Shown: one piece after another, positions 1 to 40,875 of the stretch
Layout of the letters: every line of letters begins with the position of its first letter
Position numbering within the stretch: the stretch's first letter is position 1
Source: a virus
Lineage: Duplodnaviria; Heunggongvirae; Uroviricota; Caudoviricetes
Reading direction: 5' to 3' (one strand)
IMG/VR virus record: IMGVR_UViG_2563366845_000003
Coordinates: 1 to 40,875 of that record
DNA: 40,875 nucleotides
Made by a program: the position numbers and the translations under genes
The notes under the pieces: generated by a model
Told to the model about the DNA's origin: nothing
What the model saw: only the letters and a program-made list of their open reading frames with translations
Database searches by the model: none

Positions 1-1284
1 TTACTTCTTCGCCTCTGCAACCACTTTGCTACCCACGCCGCGGTTATTGTATTCCCACATGCGGTTGTAGTTAGTGTCATTCAGATTGCGCTGTACTTCG
101 TCGTTATCATCAACGTTGCCAGTATTACCCGCAAACGGACGATTGGAAATCACCGCATCGGCCCACGGTTTCGCCGTGTTAAAACCTTCGTTGATGGCGC
201 TATCACGGATCACTACCTGACCGTTGGTATTGGCATCAACATCCAGCGAGCGGCCCAGTTGCGCCACGCCATCCCCGGAAGCATTGAAACGGCTGTTTAC
301 GGCGAGGAAACCGTAGTAAATGTTGGACAGCGTAGCCGGTGCAAACACATACGCTTCTTGCTGGGTACGGGAGTTCACCACGCGGAATTCGGTGTTATCG
401 AACACCACTGCGCCGCGACCAGAAACGATATCCACATCCCCTTCAATGTAGCTGTTAGTCACCAGGGTACGCGGCTGACGGTTGCTTTCCAGACGGTTTT
501 GCACACCGCTGTTGGTGACAAAGAAGGTATTCTGGCGACCGAGAATATTGACGTTATTGATCTGCACTTTGTCGCCATCAGTACGCAGTGCCACCGCCGG
601 ATGGTTACCCGCATCTACGCTATCGCCCAGTGTGTTTTCGATGGTCAGGTTTTGCAGTTGCAGGCCATTGTTTTGTGACCAGAAGACCGCAGAACAGAGC
701 ACGCCAATGCTGTCGCTGCGTTTGCTCTGGCAGCTATCGTACATATACCACGCTGGTTTACCCGGCATATATTTGCCGCGTGGGTTGACGTCGTGACGCC
801 AGTCGGCTGGGCTCATGCCCCCATCAAGGGAAAGCCCAATTTTCACATCAATCGGTTTTTCACCTGTACCGTACAGAGTAATTCCACCCGGAGCGGCAGG
901 GACATACACCGTTCCCTGATACTCACCAGGCATCACGGCAATATACTGGCGCTTGTTGGTACGCTTGATAATTGCCGCATCTACCGCCGCCTGAATCGTG
1001 GTATGCGTTACACCTTGAGTACCCGCCGGGCCGACAACAAAGTCAGGTTGTGCAGGCAGGGTAATCGGGGAAGGATTCCACGCTGCAGCACCTGGTGTCA
1101 GGGATGCAAAATAGTGTTGAGCATCGAAATTCTGCGCTTCTTTTGCCGACAGAATCGGGCGAGAAGAGGTACCAGGCGCGGTTTGATCAGAAGGACGTTG
1201 ATCGGGCGGTGTTGAGCTACAGGCGGTCAGCGTCACGCCAAAAGCCAATGCCAGCGCCAGACGGGAAACTGAAAATGTGTTCAC
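1..1284 (-). CDS. ybhC: Host lipoprotein YbhC (pectinesterase-like / acyl-CoA thioesterase family); the gene that flanks att-lambda in E. coli
   Basis: 427 aa ORF with lipoprotein signal (LTAC lipobox) and YbhC-like sequence; GTG start at 1282..1284; lies immediately outside the att core. Confidence 0.85.
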   Translation of the reverse strand: MNTFSVSRLALALAFGVTLTACSSTPPDQRPSDQTAPGTSSRPILSAKEAQNFDAQHYFASLTPGAAAWNPSPITLPAQPDFVVGPAGTQGVTHTTIQAAVDAAIIKRTNKRQYIAVMPGEYQGTVYVPAAPGGITLYGTGEKPIDVKIGLSLDGGMSPADWRHDVNPRGKYMPGKPAWYMYDSCQSKRSDSIGVLCSAVFWSQNNGLQLQNLTIENTLGDSVDAGNHPAVALRTDGDKVQINNVNILGRQNTFFVTNSGVQNRLESNRQPRTLVTNSYIEGDVDIVSGRGAVVFDNTEFRVVNSRTQQEAYVFAPATLSNIYYGFLAVNSRFNASGDGVAQLGRSLDVDANTNGQVVIRDSAINEGFNTAKPWADAVISNRPFAGNTGNVDDNDEVQRNLNDTNYNRMWEYNNRGVGSKVVAEAKK

Positions 1285-1418: not shown

Positions 1419-2489
1419 TTATTTGATTTCAATTTTGTCCCACTCCCTGCCTCTGTCATCACGATACTGTGATGCCATGGTGTCCGACTTATGCCCGAGA
1501 AGATGTTGAGCAAACTTATCGCTTATCTGCTTCTCATAGAGTCTTGCAGACAAACTGCGCAACTCGTGAAAGGTAGGCGGATCCCCTTCGAAGGAAAGAC
1601 CTGATGCTTTTCGTGCGCGCATAAAATACCTTGATACTGTGCCGGATGAAAGCGGTTCACGACGAGTAGATGCAATTATGGTTTCTCCGCCAAGAATCTC
1701 TTTGCATTTATCAAGTGTTTCCTTCATTGATATCCCGAGAGCATCAACATGCAATGTTGTTGGGATGGCAATTTTTACGCCTGTTTTGCTTTGCTCGACA
1801 TAAAGATATCCATCTACGATATCAGACCACTTCATTTCGCATAAATCACCAACTCGTTGCCCGGTAACAACAGCCAGTTCCATTGCAAGTCTGAGCCAAC
1901 ATGGTGATGATTCTGCTGCTTGATAAATTTTCAGGTATTCGTCAGCCGTAAGTCTTGATCTCCTTACCTCTGATTTTGCTGCGCGAGTAGCAGCGACCGG
2001 GTTTGTTGTTATATGGCCTTCAGCTATTGCCTCTCGGAATGCATCGCTCAGTGTTGATCTGATTAACTTGGCTGACGCCGCCTTGCCCTCGTCTATGTAT
2101 CCATTGAGCATTGCTGCAATTTCTTTTGTGGTGATGTCTTCAAGTGGAGCATCAGGCAGACCCCTCCTTATTGCTTTAATTTTGCTCATGTAATTTATGA
2201 GTGTCTTCTGCTTGATTCCTCTGCTGGCGAGGATTTTTTCGTAGCGATCAAGCCATGAATGTAACGTAACAGAATTATCACTGTTGATTCTCGCTGTCAG
2301 AGGCTTGTGTTTGTGTCCTGAAAATAACTCAATGTTGGCCTGTATAGCTTCAGTGATTGCTATCCTCCTGTCTCGGCCTAATCCAAACTCTTTACCCGTC
2401 CTTGGGTCCCTGTAGCAGTAATATCCATTGTTTCTTATATAAAGGTTAGGGGGTAAATCCCGGCGCTCATGACTTCGCCTTCTTCCCAT
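1419..2489 (-). CDS. int: Lambda-type tyrosine integrase Int
   Basis: 356 aa, begins MGRRRSHERRDLPPNLYIRNNGYYCYRDPRTGKEFGLG, essentially lambda Int; overlaps xis by 23 bp as in lambda. Confidence 0.97.
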   Translation of the reverse strand: MGRRRSHERRDLPPNLYIRNNGYYCYRDPRTGKEFGLGRDRRIAITEAIQANIELFSGHKHKPLTARINSDNSVTLHSWLDRYEKILASRGIKQKTLINYMSKIKAIRRGLPDAPLEDITTKEIAAMLNGYIDEGKAASAKLIRSTLSDAFREAIAEGHITTNPVAATRAAKSEVRRSRLTADEYLKIYQAAESSPCWLRLAMELAVVTGQRVGDLCEMKWSDIVDGYLYVEQSKTGVKIAIPTTLHVDALGISMKETLDKCKEILGGETIIASTRREPLSSGTVSRYFMRARKASGLSFEGDPPTFHELRSLSARLYEKQISDKFAQHLLGHKSDTMASQYRDDRGREWDKIEIK

Positions 2490-5490: not shown

Positions 5491-5973
5491 TTATTTGATA
5501 AGAAGTGAAGGTTTCCCAACTTTGAGTTGAGCGCCGGGGATATTTATTCCTGCTTTTAGTTGGTGTTTGATTGCCAGTTTGTCGGCTTTAATTGTCGTTT
5601 CAAACTCAACGTATTCAGGAGGAAGGGCGCTTGAGTCGATGATTTCTACAGTTTCTGACGGTTTGCGGATTGTTACCTGGTGAATACCTGCTCGAATCTT
5701 TTTCTTGCCAACCATTTCAAGCGATGACGCTATATACGCCATAATGCTGTCAATCTTGTTTTGAATTACTGCGGCTCGCTCATTTAGTGACTTTGCCTCT
5801 TCCTTGAGGCGTTCAGCATAACCAGATTCATTTTTAATAATGGCAAGAAGTTGCTCTATTTTATCGGTAAATTCTCCTTCCATGCCTTCTATTGTGTCAG
5901 CAATCATCTCTGGTTCTAAATCTGAATCCATTAATTTTGCGTATTCATTGGCAATTTCATACAGTTTGCTCAC
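5491..5973 (-). CDS. Recombination-associated protein, Gp157-like (partner of RecT/Erf in many phages)
   Basis: 160 aa; GTG start with GGAGG Shine-Dalgarno; sits immediately upstream of recT; family assignment from memory of sequence character only. Confidence 0.5.
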   Translation of the reverse strand: MSKLYEIANEYAKLMDSDLEPEMIADTIEGMEGEFTDKIEQLLAIIKNESGYAERLKEEAKSLNERAAVIQNKIDSIMAYIASSLEMVGKKKIRAGIHQVTIRKPSETVEIIDSSALPPEYVEFETTIKADKLAIKHQLKAGINIPGAQLKVGKPSLLIK

Positions 5974-6859
5974 TGGCAGCCTCCAGTTTCGCTTTGCATT
6001 CTATGTAAATGGCTTGTACGTTCTGCTGCAATTTCATTCCAGATGTCAGTCGATATGCTTCTGCAAAATATCGCTTCAAATCATCCATGTTTTCTGCCTG
6101 ATCCATTTCATCACAAAGAAGTTGTGCTTTTTCCATTATTTCCTGCTGGCGTTTCCGTTCATCTTCGCGGATATCTTCCTCTGATTTGTGCGGCATAACT
6201 GGTTCCTGATGCATACCTTCATCTTCGTTAAGCAGGTGAATGGCATTATCCAGTCGCTGGGCTTTAGGCCAGTATTTGCTGGCGCGTTTAACTATTGTTT
6301 TACGCGCCATCTCTTCCCAGAATGTTTTCCACGGTCCATTCTTTGCCTTGCTCGTTGCTTCCACAGCTTTAATTTCTGCCAGACTCATTTCTTCAGTCAG
6401 GTAGTCACCATCTGCTGTTTTAACCGTGCAATAACCTCCAACAATAGAGCCTCGCTCACCAAATGCGTTGTATTTGTGGGTTGGTGCTGAATCAAGGCCA
6501 TTTGATTCATAGGTGTCGTTTGAGTACACCAGTTTGCATTGCCCCCACTTAATTGATCCTGTCGATTGCGCAAGATGAAGTAATCCCATGTAACTGATAT
6601 CAAGGCACACCATGCCGTCGCGCGGAACCAGATAAGCCAGTTTGCTGGCCGGGTTTAAGGTGATGCCGATCGCCGCAACATTGATGATGGCGTTCTGTGC
6701 GCTGGTTGGATTTGCCAGTGCCGTTTTAGCCAGGTAATCGTTTTTCTGGAAATACTGAATTGCAAACTGGCTTTCCTTAGCCCATGTCACCGTCTGTTCA
6801 GTCAATGCTCCGCAGAATAACTGCTCTTGCTGTTTAACGAATTCAACGATATTGCTCAT
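5957..6859 (-). CDS. recT: RecT-family single-strand annealing recombinase (lambda Bet analog)
   Basis: 300 aa; motif GPWKTFWEEMARKTIVKRASKYWP matches the RecT signature (GPWVTHWEEMAKKTAIRRLFKYLP in Rac RecT). Confidence 0.85.
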   Translation of the reverse strand: MSNIVEFVKQQEQLFCGALTEQTVTWAKESQFAIQYFQKNDYLAKTALANPTSAQNAIINVAAIGITLNPASKLAYLVPRDGMVCLDISYMGLLHLAQSTGSIKWGQCKLVYSNDTYESNGLDSAPTHKYNAFGERGSIVGGYCTVKTADGDYLTEEMSLAEIKAVEATSKAKNGPWKTFWEEMARKTIVKRASKYWPKAQRLDNAIHLLNEDEGMHQEPVMPHKSEEDIREDERKRQQEIMEKAQLLCDEMDQAENMDDLKRYFAEAYRLTSGMKLQQNVQAIYIECKAKLEAASEQTV

Positions 6860-7167
6860 GCTGCTTCTCCAAAAATGTGTCTGCGTTTGAATATTGCGAA
6901 GGCATATTCAGCCTTAACTCTTTCGGTTATTGCATCCCAGAACCATTCAGCGGCTTTTTCCTGATAGTTACAGTCATCATCTTCCAGCCAGTCGATAGCG
7001 TCCTTAGTGTGTTCATCTGGTTTATATGAGCGAAGCATTTCGCTTATTGGGTCGCAACGTTTGCAGAGGCGATCAACTTCACTGTTGATTCGTTCGTAAT
7101 CTTCATCAGTAAAACTTGCGATGATTTGCGATATTTCACGCTTATCATTCAGAGTCAGAATCATCAT
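6856..7167 (-). CDS. Hypothetical protein (103 aa) in the position of lambda gam
   Basis: ATGATG start; stop overlaps recT start (ATGA); acidic with several Cys; no similarity to lambda Gam apparent. Confidence 0.5.
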   Translation of the reverse strand: MMILTLNDKREISQIIASFTDEDYERINSEVDRLCKRCDPISEMLRSYKPDEHTKDAIDWLEDDDCNYQEKAAEWFWDAITERVKAEYAFAIFKRRHIFGEAA

Positions 7168-7252
7168 CTTTCTCCTGTTCTTTGTGCTGATTGAGCATTT
7201 TGTTCATCTGACGAATGAATTCCTCGTCTGACCAGTTATCTGTAAAACTCAT
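7145..7252 (-). CDS. Very small hypothetical protein (35 aa), translationally coupled to kil-like gene
   Basis: ATG 7250..7252 overlaps the kil-like stop (ATGA); translation MSFTDNWSDEEFIRQMNKMLNQHKEQEKDDDSDSE. Confidence 0.25.
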   Translation of the reverse strand: MSFTDNWSDEEFIRQMNKMLNQHKEQEKDDDSDSE

Positions 7253-7401
7253 TTCCTGCGATACCACGGAAGGTTGATAGCTGATTTCATCGCTTTATTT
7301 GCTTCAAGCCACATTTTGGAATCACCAATAAATCTGGCTATTACTGCTTTGTTTTGTGCTGCACGAAGCATCTGGTGATTGATGGCTATTTCATTGCGCA
7401 T
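7249..7401 (-). CDS. kil: Kil-like small protein (lambda Kil family, host division inhibitor)
   Basis: 50 aa MRNEIAINHQMLRAAQNKAVIARFIGDSKMWLEANKAMKSAINLPWYRRK; FIGD-KM motif recalled for lambda Kil; GGAGG Shine-Dalgarno; between cIII and the recombination genes as in lambda. Confidence 0.45.
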   Translation of the reverse strand: MRNEIAINHQMLRAAQNKAVIARFIGDSKMWLEANKAMKSAINLPWYRRK

Positions 7402-7520
7402 AACGCCTCCAGTTGTTTCTTTGCTGCTCTGATTAATTGTTTAACTCGGCGTGATAATTCAGATTCGTGCGGGTAGAAAGCGGACATGACGCCGCTACCC
7501 GCGAGCTGAAAGTGCATCAT
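7386..7520 (-). CDS. cIII: CIII-like protein (FtsH inhibitor that stabilises CII)
   Basis: 44 aa MMHFQLAGSGVMSAFYPHESELSRRVKQLIRAAKKQLEALCAMK; resembles the lambda CIII core (AGWPVAGCPSESLLERITRKLRDGW); GGAG Shine-Dalgarno; the track ORF 7386..7625 is an upstream over-extension. Confidence 0.55.
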   Translation of the reverse strand: MMHFQLAGSGVMSAFYPHESELSRRVKQLIRAAKKQLEALCAMK

Positions 7521-7584
7521 GGGTAACTCCTTATATTTGATTGCATAACGAAAACGCCTCGAGTGAAGCGTTATTGGTATGCAT

Positions 7585-7610
7585 ATAAAAAAGCCCTCAC
7601 ATTGGAGGGC
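7585..7610 (-). terminator. Intrinsic terminator on the minus strand, about 65 nt upstream of cIII
   Basis: Minus-strand hairpin GCCCTC-caatgt-GAGGGC followed by TTTTTTAT. Confidence 0.6.
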
Positions 7611-7673
7611 AAAGAAGATTTCCAATAATCAGAACAAGTCGGCTCCTGTTTAGTTACGAGCGACATTGCTCCG

Positions 7674-7700
7674 TGTATTCACTCGTTGGAATGAATACAC
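7674..7700. repeat. Perfect 9 bp inverted repeat with 9 bp spacer (GTGTATTCA-N9-TGAATACAC)
   Basis: Read directly; lies in the non-coding stretch between the two leftward terminators. Confidence 0.6.
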
Positions 7701-7728
7701 AGTGCAGTGTTTATTCTGTTGTTAGTGC

Positions 7729-7754
7729 CAAAAATAAAGGCCGGCTATGCGGCC
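7729..7754 (-). terminator. Intrinsic terminator (tL-like) at the 3' end of the accessory gene
   Basis: Minus-strand GC-only 5 bp stem GGCCG-catagc-CGGCC followed by TTTATTTTTGG; overlaps the stop codon at 7745..7747. Confidence 0.55.
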
Positions 7755-8368
7755 TCGGAAGGAAGTCCAATCATCTTATTCAAATCTTCTACCCGTAAAG
7801 CAGGAAGTGCTGTACTTGCTTTATCTGCTTCTTTTGGTAGCAACTCTTTGCTTTCAGGCCAAACTTCAATAAGTCGCTTAACTGTTGTGACTGAGTTCAA
7901 AGCAGCCCATACATTTGATTTGATATCCTTTTTCTTGACTTCAAGTTTTTGTTGCAATGCGCAGATTTCATCAAACCTTTTTGTTATTTCGTGTTCTGCG
8001 TCAAACATGCATTTATCTTTTTCTGGGGTGGGGAGCAATATATCTTCACCGTTGCCGTCTTTTCCGTATGAATGCCAGCCAACTCTTCTGCCAGATACAG
8101 TCAGATAAATTGATGTAGAACGAACATCGTATGAGTAAAATGAACATCCCAGTTTTTTAAGTTCTTCACTTATAGCTACTAACTTGGATGATAACTGATC
8201 CACTTCCTCAGTTTTCTTTTTACCGCCAAACGCAATAACTCTGGCGTCAAGTGCAAGCTGGTTCTTTAACTTTGTTACTTCTTCAAGTTCAGTGAAAACC
8301 CCAGACTTAATTAAAGCGTTACGAGCGATTTCCTCTTTCATTCTCGTAGTTAAGCGGATTGATGACAT
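7745..8368 (-). CDS. Hypothetical accessory protein (207 aa, hydrophilic, Lys/Glu-rich, coiled-coil-like); function unknown
   Basis: ATG at 8366..8368 (MSSIRLTTRMKEEIARNALIKS) with GAGAGGAA Shine-Dalgarno; the track ORF begins upstream at a TTG; followed by its own terminator; occupies the lambda ral/sieB/ea10 position. Confidence 0.7.
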   Translation of the reverse strand: MSSIRLTTRMKEEIARNALIKSGVFTELEEVTKLKNQLALDARVIAFGGKKKTEEVDQLSSKLVAISEELKKLGCSFYSYDVRSTSIYLTVSGRRVGWHSYGKDGNGEDILLPTPEKDKCMFDAEHEITKRFDEICALQQKLEVKKKDIKSNVWAALNSVTTVKRLIEVWPESKELLPKEADKASTALPALRVEDLNKMIGLPSEAA

Positions 8369-8504
8369 ATTAATTCCTCTCAAATAAGTGGTTTGCTGCC
8401 TAATTTCATTTTCTGGCGACCAACACAAGTCACACCCATTTCACTGCGTGGCTTGCGGTAGTAAATAGGGTTATTTATGTCATTAAAAACCAGCATGAGC
8501 GTGG

Positions 8505-8783
8505 TTATTTTTTCTTTCCAAGAGATGGAAGCCCTCCAGAATAATCTGGACCACTTGAACGATGCATTTGATACAATATTGCGTTTTTTATTGCGTTTTT
8601 GTTGGCGTTTAGTGGCTTTGTTGCGAAAGAAATTTTTTCTCGTTTTACATCTCTTATCATCATCAACTCACGTTCTGATGCTTTTGGATGATAATCATTG
8701 ATATGCTTCCATGCTGCCTTGGCGCTGAATTTTCTTCCACATAAAGGGCAATAGCATTTATATGATACTTGTTTGCTAGTCAT
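8505..8783 (-). CDS. Small C2H2-like zinc-finger protein (92 aa)
   Basis: Motif C-P-L-C-x11-H-x4-H (CPLCGRKFSAKAAWKHINDYH); ATG 2 nt after the N stop codon. Confidence 0.6.
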   Translation of the reverse strand: MTSKQVSYKCYCPLCGRKFSAKAAWKHINDYHPKASERELMMIRDVKREKISFATKPLNANKNAIKNAILYQMHRSSGPDYSGGLPSLGKKK

Positions 8784-31378: not shown

Positions 31379-34224
<2,846 letters not shown>

Positions 34225-34634
34225 CGTTCAGCACCGCGCTTGATTCTCTCAACGAGATAGAGCAAAGCCCCGGCCTTTCAAAAGCAGTAGGAATTCGCTC
34301 AGCGTTTCCGACAGTCCCTGGCTCTGATGCGGCTAACTTTGAAGCAAGGCTCGACACCTTTAAAGCTCAAACATTCCTTCCTATGGTGCAGTCCCTGAAG
34401 GGTATGGGCGCTCTTTCAGATGCTGAGGGTAAAAAATTATCCGATGCGGTTGGTGCCCTAAGCCCCAAAATGAGTGAAAAGGCTTTTCGTGACTCTATCG
34501 GAAAGATTAGAAATCAGCTTGAAAGCAAGTTGAGCACTGTTAAAAAACAGTTTGATTATCAGGAGCCAGTACAGAATACGCCAGCGCAACAACCTACTAC
34601 TGGCAGTAACTTTTCTTCACTATGGGGTGATTAA
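34225..34634 (+). pseudogene. Ejection protein gene (P22 gp20-like), 3' fragment downstream of the IS
   Basis: Continues the gp20 frame (…GAVDTF | STALDSLNEIEQ…) after the right target-site duplication copy; stop overlaps the gp16 start. Confidence 0.7.
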
Positions 34635-36733: not shown

Positions 36734-37219
36734 TTATCTGATGTTACTGCTACTGTTGCATGTGACTGTATTTCCAAACCCTGAATTGCAGTTTGTGTAA
36801 GTGTCAACGCGTGTTGGGTAAGGTTGAGTTATAACAGGCTGGCGCGCTTTTTGCTCGATAGCTTGCATTGTGTTTACAGCCTGATAATTCAATAAAGCCT
36901 GCTGGAATGCTTGGCTTTGTGCTATTTGTTGGGCTTGTTCTTGGCTTTGTAATTGAACATAAAGATTCTGAAGCTCAAGTCTTGCCTGCGCGTCACTTAT
37001 CTTGCCATCATCGACACCTTGCCCGAGCATCTTCGCAGCAAGGACATATAACTTAGGTGTTGGTGCTGATGCCATGCGTGAGTCGCTCTTCACGCTAGCA
37101 TCAAGGCAATTAGCCATATCGCTAAGCTTTGGATAGCGTTGTTCGCAACTTGCCTGATAGTCGCTAACCTTTGCACACCCTGCCAGCAGAAGCGGGATAA
37201 TTAACAGTGATTTTTTCAT
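36734..37219 (-). CDS. Hypothetical lipoprotein (161 aa) with Gln-rich central region
   Basis: ATG at 37217..37219 with strong AAGGAGAG Shine-Dalgarno; signal peptide plus lipobox LLAGC; track ORF begins 10 codons upstream. Confidence 0.7.
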   Translation of the reverse strand: MKKSLLIIPLLLAGCAKVSDYQASCEQRYPKLSDMANCLDASVKSDSRMASAPTPKLYVLAAKMLGQGVDDGKISDAQARLELQNLYVQLQSQEQAQQIAQSQAFQQALLNYQAVNTMQAIEQKARQPVITQPYPTRVDTYTNCNSGFGNTVTCNSSSNIR

Positions 37220-37353
37220 ATGATTAACTCTCCTTATCTTTGCCATCATGGCACTGTTGGGTGTAAATGAGTTATTAACTCAATCGACAATATCTTCACG
37301 AAAATACTTTTTATTATTAAGATCTTTCTGATTCTAACAAAACGGAAAGTAAT

Positions 37354-37773
37354 ATGAAGAGGATTATCGGCGTCGTTGCTGGCGCTATATTGTTATCTGG
37401 GTGCGCAACTATTGTTGGTGACGAAACACAGCTTGTGCAAGTGAACAGCAATCCTTCCGGTGCGAGCTTTAAGGTAAAAGACGAATCCGGCGTGATTGTT
37501 GCGCAAGGTAAGACTCCGCAAGGAGTAACTCTTGCCAAGTCAGATGGTAGTTATTTTGGCAAAAAGAGCTACCATATCACTATGGAAAAGGATGGGTACG
37601 AACCAGTTACCCTGCCAATCAAAGCCAATGCTAATGGTTGGTATATTGGTGGAAACCTTGTGTTTGGTGGGTTAATTGGTTGGCTTGCTGTAGATCCTTT
37701 TAATGGTGGGATGTATACCTTGAAGCCAAAAGAGGCAAACGCATCTCTTATACCATCAACAAAGCAAGACTAA
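37354..37773 (+). CDS. Hypothetical lipoprotein (139 aa), PEGA-like beta-rich domain
   Basis: Signal peptide with lipobox LLSGC; Gly-rich C-terminal segment; followed by a terminator. Confidence 0.7.
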   Translation: MKRIIGVVAGAILLSGCATIVGDETQLVQVNSNPSGASFKVKDESGVIVAQGKTPQGVTLAKSDGSYFGKKSYHITMEKDGYEPVTLPIKANANGWYIGGNLVFGGLIGWLAVDPFNGGMYTLKPKEANASLIPSTKQD

Positions 37774-37782
37774 TAAATAGGA

Positions 37783-37804
37783 CCCACCTTCAGGTGGGTT
37801 TTTT
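37783..37804. terminator. Bidirectional intrinsic terminator between the convergent lipoprotein and mnt genes
   Basis: CCCACC-ttca-GGTGGG followed by TTTTTT on the plus strand; overlaps the mnt stop codon. Confidence 0.7.
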
Positions 37805-38041
37805 GTACAAATCCTTCAGCGTATCAAACACCATCTTCTTAACAAGTTCAGACTGCTCATCAGCGATGCGTTCCGCATCGTCTCGATAGCCTGAAATTTT
37901 GGATGGCTTTGATACAGCATCAGTCACTATCTGAACTAATTCTGAATTAAGAGAGCGGCCATTGGATTTGGCTCGCTGTTTTAGTTTTTCCTTTAATTCG
38001 TAAGGTAGCCGCAGATTAAATTGCGGGTCATCTCTTCCCAT
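37790..38041 (-). CDS. mnt: Mnt repressor (P22 immI ribbon-helix-helix repressor)
   Basis: 83 aa MGRDDPQFNLRLPYELKEKLKQRAKSNGRSLNSELVQIVTDAVSKPS ... ERIADEQSELVKKMVFDTLKDLYKKPT closely matches P22 Mnt as recalled. Confidence 0.85.
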   Translation of the reverse strand: MGRDDPQFNLRLPYELKEKLKQRAKSNGRSLNSELVQIVTDAVSKPSKISGYRDDAERIADEQSELVKKMVFDTLKDLYKKPT

Positions 38042-38104
38042 TCTTGATGCCTCGCTTTTGTGAGTGGATCGGCATCTTATTATCTGCTGGTTGCATCCTC
38101 AATA

Positions 38105-38119
38105 AGACCACAGTGGTCT
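38105..38119. promoter_or_regulatory. Candidate Mnt operator: perfect palindrome AGACCAC-A-GTGGTCT
   Basis: 15 bp palindrome between divergent mnt and tailspike; resembles the P22 Omnt half-site (GGTCCAC); flanked by a second inverted repeat GATGCC-N19-GGCATC. Confidence 0.55.
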
Positions 38120-38187
38120 CTTTGTTTGATTAATAATGCATCACTGTGGCAATGCTGCGGCGATTCCTTGTATCTGGAGCAAATTAA

Positions 38188-40875
38188 ATGACAGACATTA
38201 CAGCCAATGTTGTAGTGAGTATGCCTTCGCAACTCTTCACTATGGCTCGTTCTTTTAAAGCCGTAGCCAATGGCAAAATTTATATCGGTAAAATTGACAC
38301 TGACCCGGTAAATCCTGAAAACCAGATTCAGGTTTATGTGGAGAATGAGGATGGTTCTCACGCTCCTGTATCGCAACCAATCATCATTAACGCTGCTGGT
38401 TACCCGGTATATAACGGACAGATTGCCAAATTCGTTACCGTGCAAGGCCATTCTATGGCTGTTTATGATGCGTATGGTGCGCAGCAGTTCTATTTTCCTA
38501 ATGTGCTGAAGTATGACCCTGATCAGTCATTGAAATATGTAGAAGGGGCATTGCTTGTTACTGACTTAGGTAATGGGACGTTTAAGAATAGTAGAAAAGA
38601 CGTTGCCATTGGGGATAATCTAACAGGAACCAATTTTATTAGAATAAACGGCGGCGTCTATAAATGCACTCCAGTTGCAACTGGAATTGTTACTGAGATC
38701 AAACATAGATACATTATCGCAGGCGGGGTTAAAAGCTACCTGTCTCATATTTCTAGGCATGTCAGTGGTACGCGTAGGCCGCTGAACTGGAAATTAGAAT
38801 TCAGCATCATAGACGATGAGATTACCGCAGATCTTAAAGATCAGTATGGTTACACGACCATGGGATTTCAGGGGATTTACATAGACAGCAATGATGGAAT
38901 GGTATACATCGGCTGGCAGACGCTAGACCCCGCATCGGTATGGGTTACGGTGCATGACTGGATAACAGGAGCATTGGTAACACGTCTTCATTTTCCGAAT
39001 AACGTTGGTGCACCAGAAGGCATCCACGTTTACCGAGTGGCAGGACAGCGTTACATCCTGCTGCCGTACAGCCCATCTCGCACTATCAGAATTTACCCTA
39101 TCGAAGATCCGCGTACGCTGGTTGATAAAACGCAGATTACAAACTTCACTGAATCAACACCCCTTGGAGTGCGATATCAGTTTAGTGGCTTTGGTAATAC
39201 CCTGATATACGAAAATGCGGATATGGGTTGGCCGAAAATTTTTGATGTTGAGACAGGTGTATCCAATATCTTTAACACACTGGATATTAACAGCCTTATA
39301 GAAGGATCTTACAGTCCAATGGGGACTATTACGGTTGATGCAAATGTTGGAGGTCGCGGAGCCGGTAAACCAAAACGGCAGGGTGTCGCTCTTGGTTCTC
39401 AACGGATATTTGCTGGTATTGGTGCATCTACCACGGCGGGATCTGGAAATACTTTCGCAGGGTTGCAGGGTTATATTGAGTACAGCCTTAATGGTTCAGA
39501 ATTAGGTCAGTACCTGCTGTCACCTGCAGATTTCAAAACATACTGGGATAGTTATTCAGGGAAGAGTGTTTACTCCACTGAAAATGAGGGGGTGCAGTCT
39601 TGTGATATTTCTGGCTCTGAGGAATTGTATCTTCTACAGTCTATTCGCTATGACAATGGGGGCGGATCAAATTATAGGACTTTAAACATCATTCGCGCTA
39701 ACTGTCCATCTAATGAACCTGGAACAGTAGACATGACTCCGCTATCCAATGCCTCATCACAGTTATTTAACCCTCGCGGAAGGGTGATTAACGCTGGCCG
39801 TCACCCTGTAAACCCGGCTGATGGTATTGCGCTATTTACATCGGCACAGGCTATTTGTGACTATTTGCGGAATACAGATGCAGGTAGATATGTGACATAT
39901 CTTGAACAGGATATGCCACTGTTTGAAGGTGGGCCATCTGCGCCAGGACAGATGACGCTGCCAGCATTCTGCCTATTGCAGATCGACTTCATCAACGGCG
40001 ATACCTGGGAAATTACAGTTAATGGAACTAACAGGGCTAATAATTATACAGGAAGGATTTCCAAAAACGGCGGGTACAACTCTTTTACTAAGGTGTCCTC
40101 CCGCAGCATGTCGATTCTCGGATCCCCTGGTCTGGTTGATGTATCAATTCGCTCACCTAACTCACTAAATCTTCCAGAATTTGCTGGAGACTGGTCTACT
40201 GGTGTAAGTGTAGGAGCTGCAGGTGGGGTGACAAACTGGCAGCCAGAAGGAACAGGTAACGGAGCATTATGGGAGTCAGGATATGCAAAAAACCGTGTGT
40301 TGCAGATATTCATGTCCACAACATCAAAACTGTTCTTCCGCTACGCAGACGATGCTATTCGCGCAGGTAACACAGGCTGGGCTGAGGCATGGTCGTCGCT
40401 GAACACGACCGTCGATTCAAGTGGTTTCATCAAAAAAGCCTCTCCGGTTGTGAAGATTTTCTCAGACGGTAGTAGTGAAACAAATCGCGAATCAGATGGG
40501 GTAACCGTCACACGGCTGGCATTGGGTGAATATCTGATTGAGGGTTGCGTAGGTCTGAATGCAGATGCTTCATGGGGGGGGATTGATGGTGGATTTGAAA
40601 TACCGCAGGACCGAAACAAGCAGCCGCTCATCTGGCTGGATTATGTTGTTAACCAAGATGGATCTGTGTTGGTGAAAACGTTTCACCGCACTCATGATAA
40701 CTCGCCCGTTTTTGCACGTAACGACATCCCTGGTGTTTCGAACGGTGACCCGATCGACATTCCTGCTAATCAATTCGTTTCTGTGCGAGTACAGATGCCT
40801 GAGGATTCTGCATGGAATAAGCTTAAGGAACAACTAAATAAGGCTGAATTGATAGAAGATGATGTTGTGGAATAG
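38188..40875 (+). CDS. Tailspike protein: P22 gp9-like N-terminal head-binding domain fused to a different receptor-binding domain
   Basis: First ~110 aa ([60 protein letters not shown] ... NVLKYDPDQ) match the P22 tailspike head-binding domain; the rest does not resemble the P22 endorhamnosidase domain; GGAG Shine-Dalgarno; stop codon is the last three bases of the window. Confidence 0.85.

Follow-up and report, generated by a model that had tools for sequence, protein, structure and literature searches.

Host serotype is predicted from prophage sequence with the help of P22-like tailspikes, which are textbook combinations of a virion anchor with a β-helix depolymerase. The locus analyzed here raises the question of what such an anchor carries when the β-helix is not there, and of what the resulting spike would recognize on its host. 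The window (the whole stretch of DNA analyzed, 40,875 nucleotides) is a chromosomal prophage of the P22-like, Lederbergvirus type, with structural genes about 96% identical to those of the P22-like phage IME10; at its left end, a pectinesterase-domain gene, which looks like host ybhC, is followed by an integrase-sized ORF. The tailspike gene, whose stop codon forms the final three bases of the window (Table 1), holds the position of P22 gene 9, being the last gene of the late region, where it follows the genes of the ejection proteins and of an mnt-like repressor. The same layout, mnt then tailspike, is found in the complete P22-like genome pB1.H1.18.c6. This sequence is already public, yet uncharacterized. 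Indeed, 11 complete Escherichia coli genomes carry copies of the tailspike with 98.6–99.6% of identity, all labeled only "phage head-binding domain-containing protein", its 90% cluster comprises 182 member sequences, and PHROG 20129 (function unknown) matches the 895-residue protein end to end, while a literature search returned no paper mentioning either its RefSeq accession or PF25670, the family that matches its C-terminal part.

The tailspike gene itself is intact in the window, unlike the ejection-protein gene block, which is interrupted by an IS21-family element (istA and istB, Table 1). This insertion in an ejection-protein gene has probably disabled the prophage, and it is possible that no virion ever bears the tailspike encoded in the window. 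In two hospital-wastewater isolates, the gene is located on a separate circular 39.9-kb replicon, a P22-like genome found complete and with its cI-type repressor frameshifted, which suggests that a phage with this spike actively propagates.

The chimeric nature of this P22-type tailspike, proposed in a sequence-only reading of the same DNA, is confirmed. The first 110 residues or so had been assigned to the head-binding domain of P22 gp9, and PF09008 (Head_binding) indeed spans residues 1–113 in full with an E-value of 1e-66 (222.7 bits against a Pfam cut-off of 24), while the PDB sequences of Sf6 gp14 (7sg7) and P22 gp9 (2vky, 2xc1, and 1lkt) match residues 1–114 only, with 91% of identity to Sf6 and 75% to P22. 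These matches are far beyond chance. The remaining 780 residues or so had been said to differ from P22, and the DNA agrees: a megablast search of 50,697 phage records gave 27 matching records, including CUS-3, HK620, Sf6, IME10, Bas106, and the BASEL Lederbergviruses, which match nucleotides 1–340/345 of the gene only, at 85–95% identity, and none of which covers the rest of it. HK620, Sf6, and CUS-3, singled out for comparison in the sequence-only reading, thus share with this gene only its anchor-encoding part, and a "boundary sequence" is annotated under the CUS-3 match at the end of the shared DNA. As judged by these comparisons, the residues after the anchor appear unrelated to any sequenced P22-like tailspike, and no characterized tailspike of known specificity was matched over its full length in the PDB or among the phage records, so that the chimeric reading stands.

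The Lederbergvirus tailspikes (P22 gp9, Sf6 gp14, HK620 gp9, and CUS-3) have in common with this protein the head-binding domain (75–91% identity), a gene located last in the late operon, behind immI/mnt, and a recombination boundary around residues 113–115, which separates a conserved anchor from an exchangeable receptor module. However, they are devoid of sequence similarity to it past residue ~114. The receptor modules of P22, Sf6, and HK620 are right-handed β-helix endoglycosidases, and that of CUS-3 is a six-bladed endosialidase with an S74 chaperone. The right-handed parallel β-helix receptor domain typical of P22 gp9 was not found in the present protein, where a predicted propeller and a fiber-type tip are found instead.

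Table 1. Features of the tailspike gene and of its surroundings in the window (positions refer to the window, residues to the 895-residue protein).
Feature	Residues	Position	Strand	Basis or remark
IS21-family element		istA 32357-33376, istB 33376-34155		interrupts the ejection-protein gene block
Mnt/Arc-type repressor gene		37790..38041	-	PF03869 Arc and PF11423 Repressor_Mnt; immediately upstream of the tailspike gene
Tailspike/RBP gene, complete	895 aa + stop	38188..40875	+	ATG start; ORF list, translation
P22 gp9-type head-binding (virion anchor) domain	1-113	38188..38526	+	PF09008; Sf6 and P22 N-terminal domains in the PDB
Neck/linker β-domain	114-197	38527..38778	+	modeled strands, pLDDT about 70-84
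Predicted five-bladed β-propeller "platform"	198-515	38779..39732	+	predicted fold; conserved polar center
Polar center of the predicted propeller	Q228, D233, E277, Q331, K396, Q398, E465-N466-E467			also W252, Y303, P308, D515
β-rich distal part of the body	516-738	39733..40401	+	fold uncertain
PF25670 Phage_tail_C_2 distal domain	739-872	40402..40803	+	Pfam
Acidic C-terminal helix	873-895 + stop	40804..40875	+	predicted helix; varies between versions
Junction 1	~113-115			end of similarity to Lederbergvirus anchors
Junction 2	~175-181	38710-38730		match to 949-residue Uetakevirus-type proteins starts at gene nucleotide 523
Junction 3	~872			last ~25 residues diverge

The gene bears traces of exchange beyond this first junction. 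The neck is common only to the close relatives P0002–P0006, and at residue ~181 the identity to the 949-residue Uetakevirus-type proteins jumps to about 100%. Over residues 181–870, the proteins of XJ55 and S1-CAM-04-C differ from the present one by 3–4 amino acids, with 2–5 synonymous changes in the genes, so that the body must have passed from one prophage genus to the other very recently; in the last ~25 residues, identity to the 949-residue versions falls to 73%. Mobility is also apparent among P22-like prophages. Indeed, the identity of 99.5% between the window and the TO6 prophage is restricted to positions 37782–40875, that is mnt plus the tailspike gene, and upstream of 37782 the two are at most 85% identical or unalignable, which indicates that the block of both genes moves between different P22-like prophages.

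Sequence searches placed the body in a very small family. Residues 115–738 gave no match in Pfam, NCBIfam, or PDB sequences and no match to a PHROG with a function. A word-indexed search of 5.8 billion sequences yielded six clusters with 67–99% of identity, a word-indexed profile search returned the same six clusters with one fragment and nothing further, and an exhaustive HMMER search of 1.84 billion representatives retrieved 11 body-family proteins at E ≤ 1e-3. None of the 12 family members has a Pfam match when searched individually, even at E ≤ 10, and the best hit of the family profile (12 members) among PDB sequences has an E-value of 0.06, to unrelated proteins. As the family was not deepened by these searches, the alignment behind the structure model stayed shallow. 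All relatives are phage tail proteins in which the same body, with a conserved core running from about residue 198 to "LNTT" at about residue 741, is found on other anchors. At least four different virion anchors were found, namely the PF09008 domain of the present protein (residues 1–113), the Uetakevirus-type anchor of the 949-residue proteins, which is 87–89% identical to those of phiv142-3, HEMP4, and others, a Tail_spike_N domain (PF18668), of which one example lies in a siphophage contig, and PF26208; a tail-collar N-terminus also occurs. In the siphophage contig, the gene encoding the body directly follows an 840-residue gene, itself located after the tape-measure and NlpC/P60 genes. 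The C-termini that follow the body differ as well, with PF25670, nothing, or a Peptidase_S74 chaperone, the latter only in the distant relatives P0013, P0014, and P0016.

An AlphaFold2 monomer model of residues 115–895, computed from an alignment of only 13 sequences, has a mean pLDDT of 64; residues ~199–514 are modeled confidently (70–93) with 20 β-strands, and residues 516–738 are poorly modeled. A fold search with the confident core points to a five-bladed β-propeller closest to the φ11 Gp45-type receptor-binding proteins (RBPs). With Foldseek against viral predicted structures, the top match is a Staphylococcus phage tail fiber (8.6e-22), and the neck appendage protein of Bacillus phage GA-1 is also among the matches. 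The RBPs of φ11 and NF5 are described as a stem, a platform, which is a five-bladed propeller in whose central cavity the receptor sugar was proposed to sit, and a tower (PMC4901313, PMC12917162). On the basis of the fold matches and of this description, the body is referred to here as a Gp45-like platform, at the level of the fold only, and residues 516–738 are possibly tower-like, then knob-like. The β-helix, lyase, and esterase folds envisaged in the sequence-only reading were rejected for the body, given that residues 115–738 have no sequence match and that the fold search returned a propeller.

The alignment, which reaches down to 20% identity, holds 14 invariant columns (W252, E277, G278, Y303, P308, K396, Q398, G412, P446, E465, N466, E467, D515, and G629). 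When projected on the predicted strands, all five blades have, at the start of their inner (first) strand or close to it, a polar residue that is invariant or nearly so, with Q228/D233, E277, Q331, K396/Q398, and E465-N466-E467 from one blade to the next. The invariant E277, E465, E467, and D515 and the near-invariant D233 are on or next to inner strands, as given by strand order and not by measured geometry. Such conservation is the pattern expected of a functional site at the center of the predicted propeller, a site placed by strand order and not as a measured pocket. Acidic residues that are strictly kept from host to host would be no less compatible with catalysis than with binding.

An exception to the orphan status of the sequence is provided by the last ~200 residues of the protein, which match PF25670 and many phage tail fibers. 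The PF25670 match to residues 739–872 has an E-value of 2e-59 (199.8 bits against a Pfam cut-off of 27), and the last ~200 residues are 58–70% identical to the C-termini of the HK446, mEp234, HK544, phi80, and mEp390 side tail fibers and, likewise, of kuravirus fibers. The region has 351 homologues at E ≤ 1e-10, and 33 columns are invariant among 96 sequences. The matching PDB sequence, 7z47_D, is SU10 gp12, a proximal long-fiber protein built for residues 1–90 only, which therefore gives no structure for the PF25670 domain. The HK446 side tail fiber ends in this domain, with attP directly after and neither a chaperone nor a second fiber gene, and in kuraviruses a T-shaped distal fiber attaches to the proximal fiber that bears it. 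PF25670 is a fiber-tip module common to lambdoid and T1-like side tail fibers and to the SU10 proximal fiber. In the PF25670 fibers (HK446, mEp234, phi80, and SU10 gp12), the homologous ~135–200 residues are always at the extreme C-terminus of slender fibers on siphophage or kuravirus tails, whereas here the domain would cap a globular propeller on a P22-type anchor. A C-terminal intramolecular chaperone, also listed for checking in the sequence-only reading, was discarded: Pfam gave no Peptidase_S74 domain (PF13884) in the tailspike, the distal model has no S74-like structural neighbor, and the C-terminus is occupied by PF25670 instead.

Comparison with the φ11 Gp45-type RBPs (φ11, 80α, P68, and NF5) delimits what is shared. 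The five-bladed platform is common to both by predicted fold, with no detectable sequence homology; the triple coiled-coil stem of the Gp45 type, with its hinge and iron site, has PF09008 and a β-neck as counterparts here, and a PF25670 tip is present in addition. The Gp45 type ends in a tower of two similar β-domains, to which residues 516–738 may or may not correspond. Wall teichoic acid is excluded as ligand, since the host is Gram-negative. The other Gp45-like platforms described in the literature surveyed all belong to phages of Gram-positive bacteria. Five-bladed carbohydrate-active enzymes (GH43, GH32, GH62, and GH68), glutaminyl cyclases, and YjiK show no sequence or profile relationship to the body, and their structural scores are below those of the phage RBPs. 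The β-propeller "depolymerase" domains of Klebsiella prophages, which are defined by fold class alone with any blade number and are thus likened here by description, are likewise propeller RBP modules in Enterobacteriaceae prophages; their association with any one capsule type is poor, and what they do was called unclear (PMC12491483).

What the spike recognizes was approached through its carriers. Four of them were serotyped from their annotated rfb clusters, bearing in mind that the serotype of a lysogen is an imperfect proxy for that of the infected host. The P22-like version occurs with an intact O16 cluster in TO6 and, at 99.3% identity, with an O7 cluster in HCM-26C-1, and the Uetakevirus-type version with an O88 cluster in XJ55 and an O17/O44/O73/O77/O106 cluster in S1-CAM-04-C, that is four serogroups for four carriers. 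Reading the receptor from the lysogen serotype, for which a single O-type was expected, was abandoned, since near-identical bodies in four O-antigen backgrounds do not allow it. Moreover, as these bodies span four O-serogroups and two prophage genera, one specific O-antigen is an improbable receptor, and the data lean toward a conserved glycan or a broad specificity. Of the sequence-only reading, the chimera of a P22-type head-binding domain with a foreign receptor-binding body is supported, and the attribution of the specificity to a particular O-antigen or capsule is weakened by the four O-antigen clusters.

Altogether, we favor, with somewhat better than even confidence, a P22-like adsorption organelle built by domain shuffling, in which the propeller center would bind a surface saccharide and PF25670 would form the tip; our confidence is higher for the architecture alone. 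As in P22 and Sf6, the gp9-type domain would attach the spike to the tail hub, and by analogy with these two phages we infer a trimeric spike. From there, the receptor-binding part would proceed through the short neck, the five-bladed platform, and the β-rich distal region to the PF25670 tip. From the fold and the conservation pattern observed, we infer that the most likely mechanism is the binding of a surface saccharide in a central pocket of the propeller lined by family-invariant residues, the predicted lining being E277, K396/Q398, and E465-N466-E467, with Q228/D233 and Q331. The tip may provide a second contact or cap the trimer.

Other readings are not mutually exclusive with parts of this model. 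That the spike recognizes the lysogen's own O-antigen, as those of P22-like prophages usually do, with O16 as its natural target and the other serogroups arising from later switching or abortive lysogeny, appears quite improbable to us. It would be in line with the usual correlation between prophage RBP and host serogroup (PMC10408124), with the location of the prophage at nearly one coordinate (1.51–1.62 Mb) in six of the 11 full-length carriers, and with the intact O16 cluster of TO6, the only typed one of these six, whose prophage lies beside argW/yfdC. It is at odds with the O7 background of HCM-26C-1, which carries the same P22-like version, and with the bodies that differ by 3–4 residues in O88 and O17/O77-group strains. 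Furthermore, all characterized O16-specific tailspikes are pectin-lyase-type β-helices unrelated to the body, including that of the P22-like Bas106, which shares only the anchor with this gene, and for RBP subtypes common to several serogroups, a published survey considers a target other than the O-antigen probable (PMC10408124). At the opposite end, the protein could be a serotype-independent, non-enzymatic adsorption device, in which a Gp45-like lectin platform grafted on P22-like, Uetakevirus-like, and siphophage anchors would bind a conserved envelope glycan, a proposal that we hold as rather unlikely in this full form. Candidate glycans in that case are the LPS core, ECA, and colanic acid.

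The invariant carboxylates, together with what is known of podophage biology, speak for an enzyme, and the propeller may constitute a new five-bladed family (glycosidase, lyase, or deacylase) degrading O-antigen, capsule, or another exopolysaccharide, in which case the spike would act as a classical depolymerizing tailspike of another fold; we regard this as the main rival and a serious possibility but lean against it in view of how the structural neighbors rank, of the missing enzyme-family signal, and of the occurrence in several serogroups. It is unlikely, in our view, that the PF25670 tip is the true receptor-binding element and the propeller a structural spacer or an accessory lectin. While the domain is the most distal one here, is strongly conserved (33 invariant columns), ends the HK446 fiber with no separate chaperone or distal fiber gene before attP, and also ends many fibers of phages infecting K-12 (phi80, mEp234, and T1-like phages), an identity of 58–70% across different fibers is rather to be expected of a module for structure, assembly, or docking than of one that determines specificity. 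In addition, the domain is carried by the kuravirus proximal fiber, to which the distal fiber attaches, and the distant relatives of the body have no PF25670, or an S74 chaperone instead, which indicates that the body can serve as terminal domain alone.

Propeller RBPs are already known, with the endosialidases and the φ11 family as examples (PMC4901313), and modular exchange of tailspike receptor domains is well known. The novelty lies in the combination of a P22 anchor, a predicted Gp45-like five-bladed platform, and a PF25670 fiber tip, as well as in an orphan body family whose near-identical copies are found in four O-serogroups and on two prophage genera. The protein is an intact and recently mobile module whose architecture differs from that of the textbook tailspikes and which has no tie to a single O-serogroup. 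The family-invariant residues E277, K396, Q398, and E465–E467 provide targets for mutagenesis. If the propeller were an enzyme, it would represent a new depolymerase family. With a conserved glycan as receptor, the module would help to widen the host range of engineered phages or tailocins and would call for caution in RBP-based serotype prediction, and should adsorption be independent of serotype, podophages would have a way to pass the O-antigen barrier without a depolymerase.

The mnt-like repressor and tailspike genes (window 37782-40875) are 99.5% identical, as a single block, to positions 5594-8688 of the TO6 prophage locus, whereas upstream of this block identity falls to 85% or less, the two P22-like prophages being otherwise divergent. 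Since mnt and the tailspike are common to both as one block, the exchanged unit is larger than the receptor-binding domain. Between window positions 37700 and 38300, four terminator-like sites were found against 0.6 expected, and no σ70-like promoter was found there.

Features of the window prophage outside the mnt and tailspike genes
Feature	Window position	Strand	Remarks
Pectinesterase-domain ORF	1-1284	-	leftmost in window
Integrase-sized ORF	1419-2489	-	next after pectinesterase-domain ORF
IS21-family element	32291-34205		istA 32357-33376, istB 33376-34155; rve/HTH transposase and IstB ATPase (7.7e-112)
Small ORF	36734-37249	-	lipoprotein signal sequence
Small ORF	37354-37773	+	lipoprotein signal sequence
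Terminator-like hairpin with T-run	38105-38126	+	between mnt and tailspike start codon

The leftmost ORF looks like the host gene ybhC and adjoins the integrase-sized ORF; the window is therefore a prophage inserted next to ybhC, in contrast to the TO6 copy at argW/yfdC and to the lysogen HCM-26C-1, whose copy lies near sbcB. Its ejection-protein gene block is interrupted by the IS21-family element, whose ends carry inverted repeats of the type TGATCCAC...GTGGATCA, with ORF 31379-32290 on one side and ORF 34197-34634 on the other. The window's copy of the prophage is probably incapable of producing infectious particles. Located after the ejection genes and before mnt, the two lipoprotein-signal ORFs have lipoboxes LLAGC and LLSGC and no Pfam match; both are candidates for a role as moron or superinfection-exclusion lipoproteins.

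A complete P22-like genome encoding the tailspike is found as a 39,940-bp circular sequence (NZ_CP146561.1), and also in NZ_CP146567.1, both recorded as "plasmid" and derived from two E. coli isolates from hospital wastewater. A frameshift in this genome's cI-type (LexA family) repressor gene points to a phage that is lytic or in a carrier state, not to a plasmid.

The body also occurs outside P22-like phages. Tailspike residues 181-870 are almost identical to residues ~237-926 of a 949-aa tail protein encoded by two Uetakevirus-type prophages inserted adjacent to yfgI (L002, 7311-10160; L003, 7290-10139), where holin, GH19 endolysin, and DUF2514 genes directly follow. Moreover, a 30-kb siphophage-like contig (Logan SRR15706865), which encodes tape measure, NlpC/P60, RecT, SSB, and DnaB proteins, carries the same body on a Tail_spike_N anchor (P0004, 977 aa), with an 840-aa gene immediately 5' of the spike gene. 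This occurrence in a siphophage-like context shows that the body module has been transferred between tail morphotypes.
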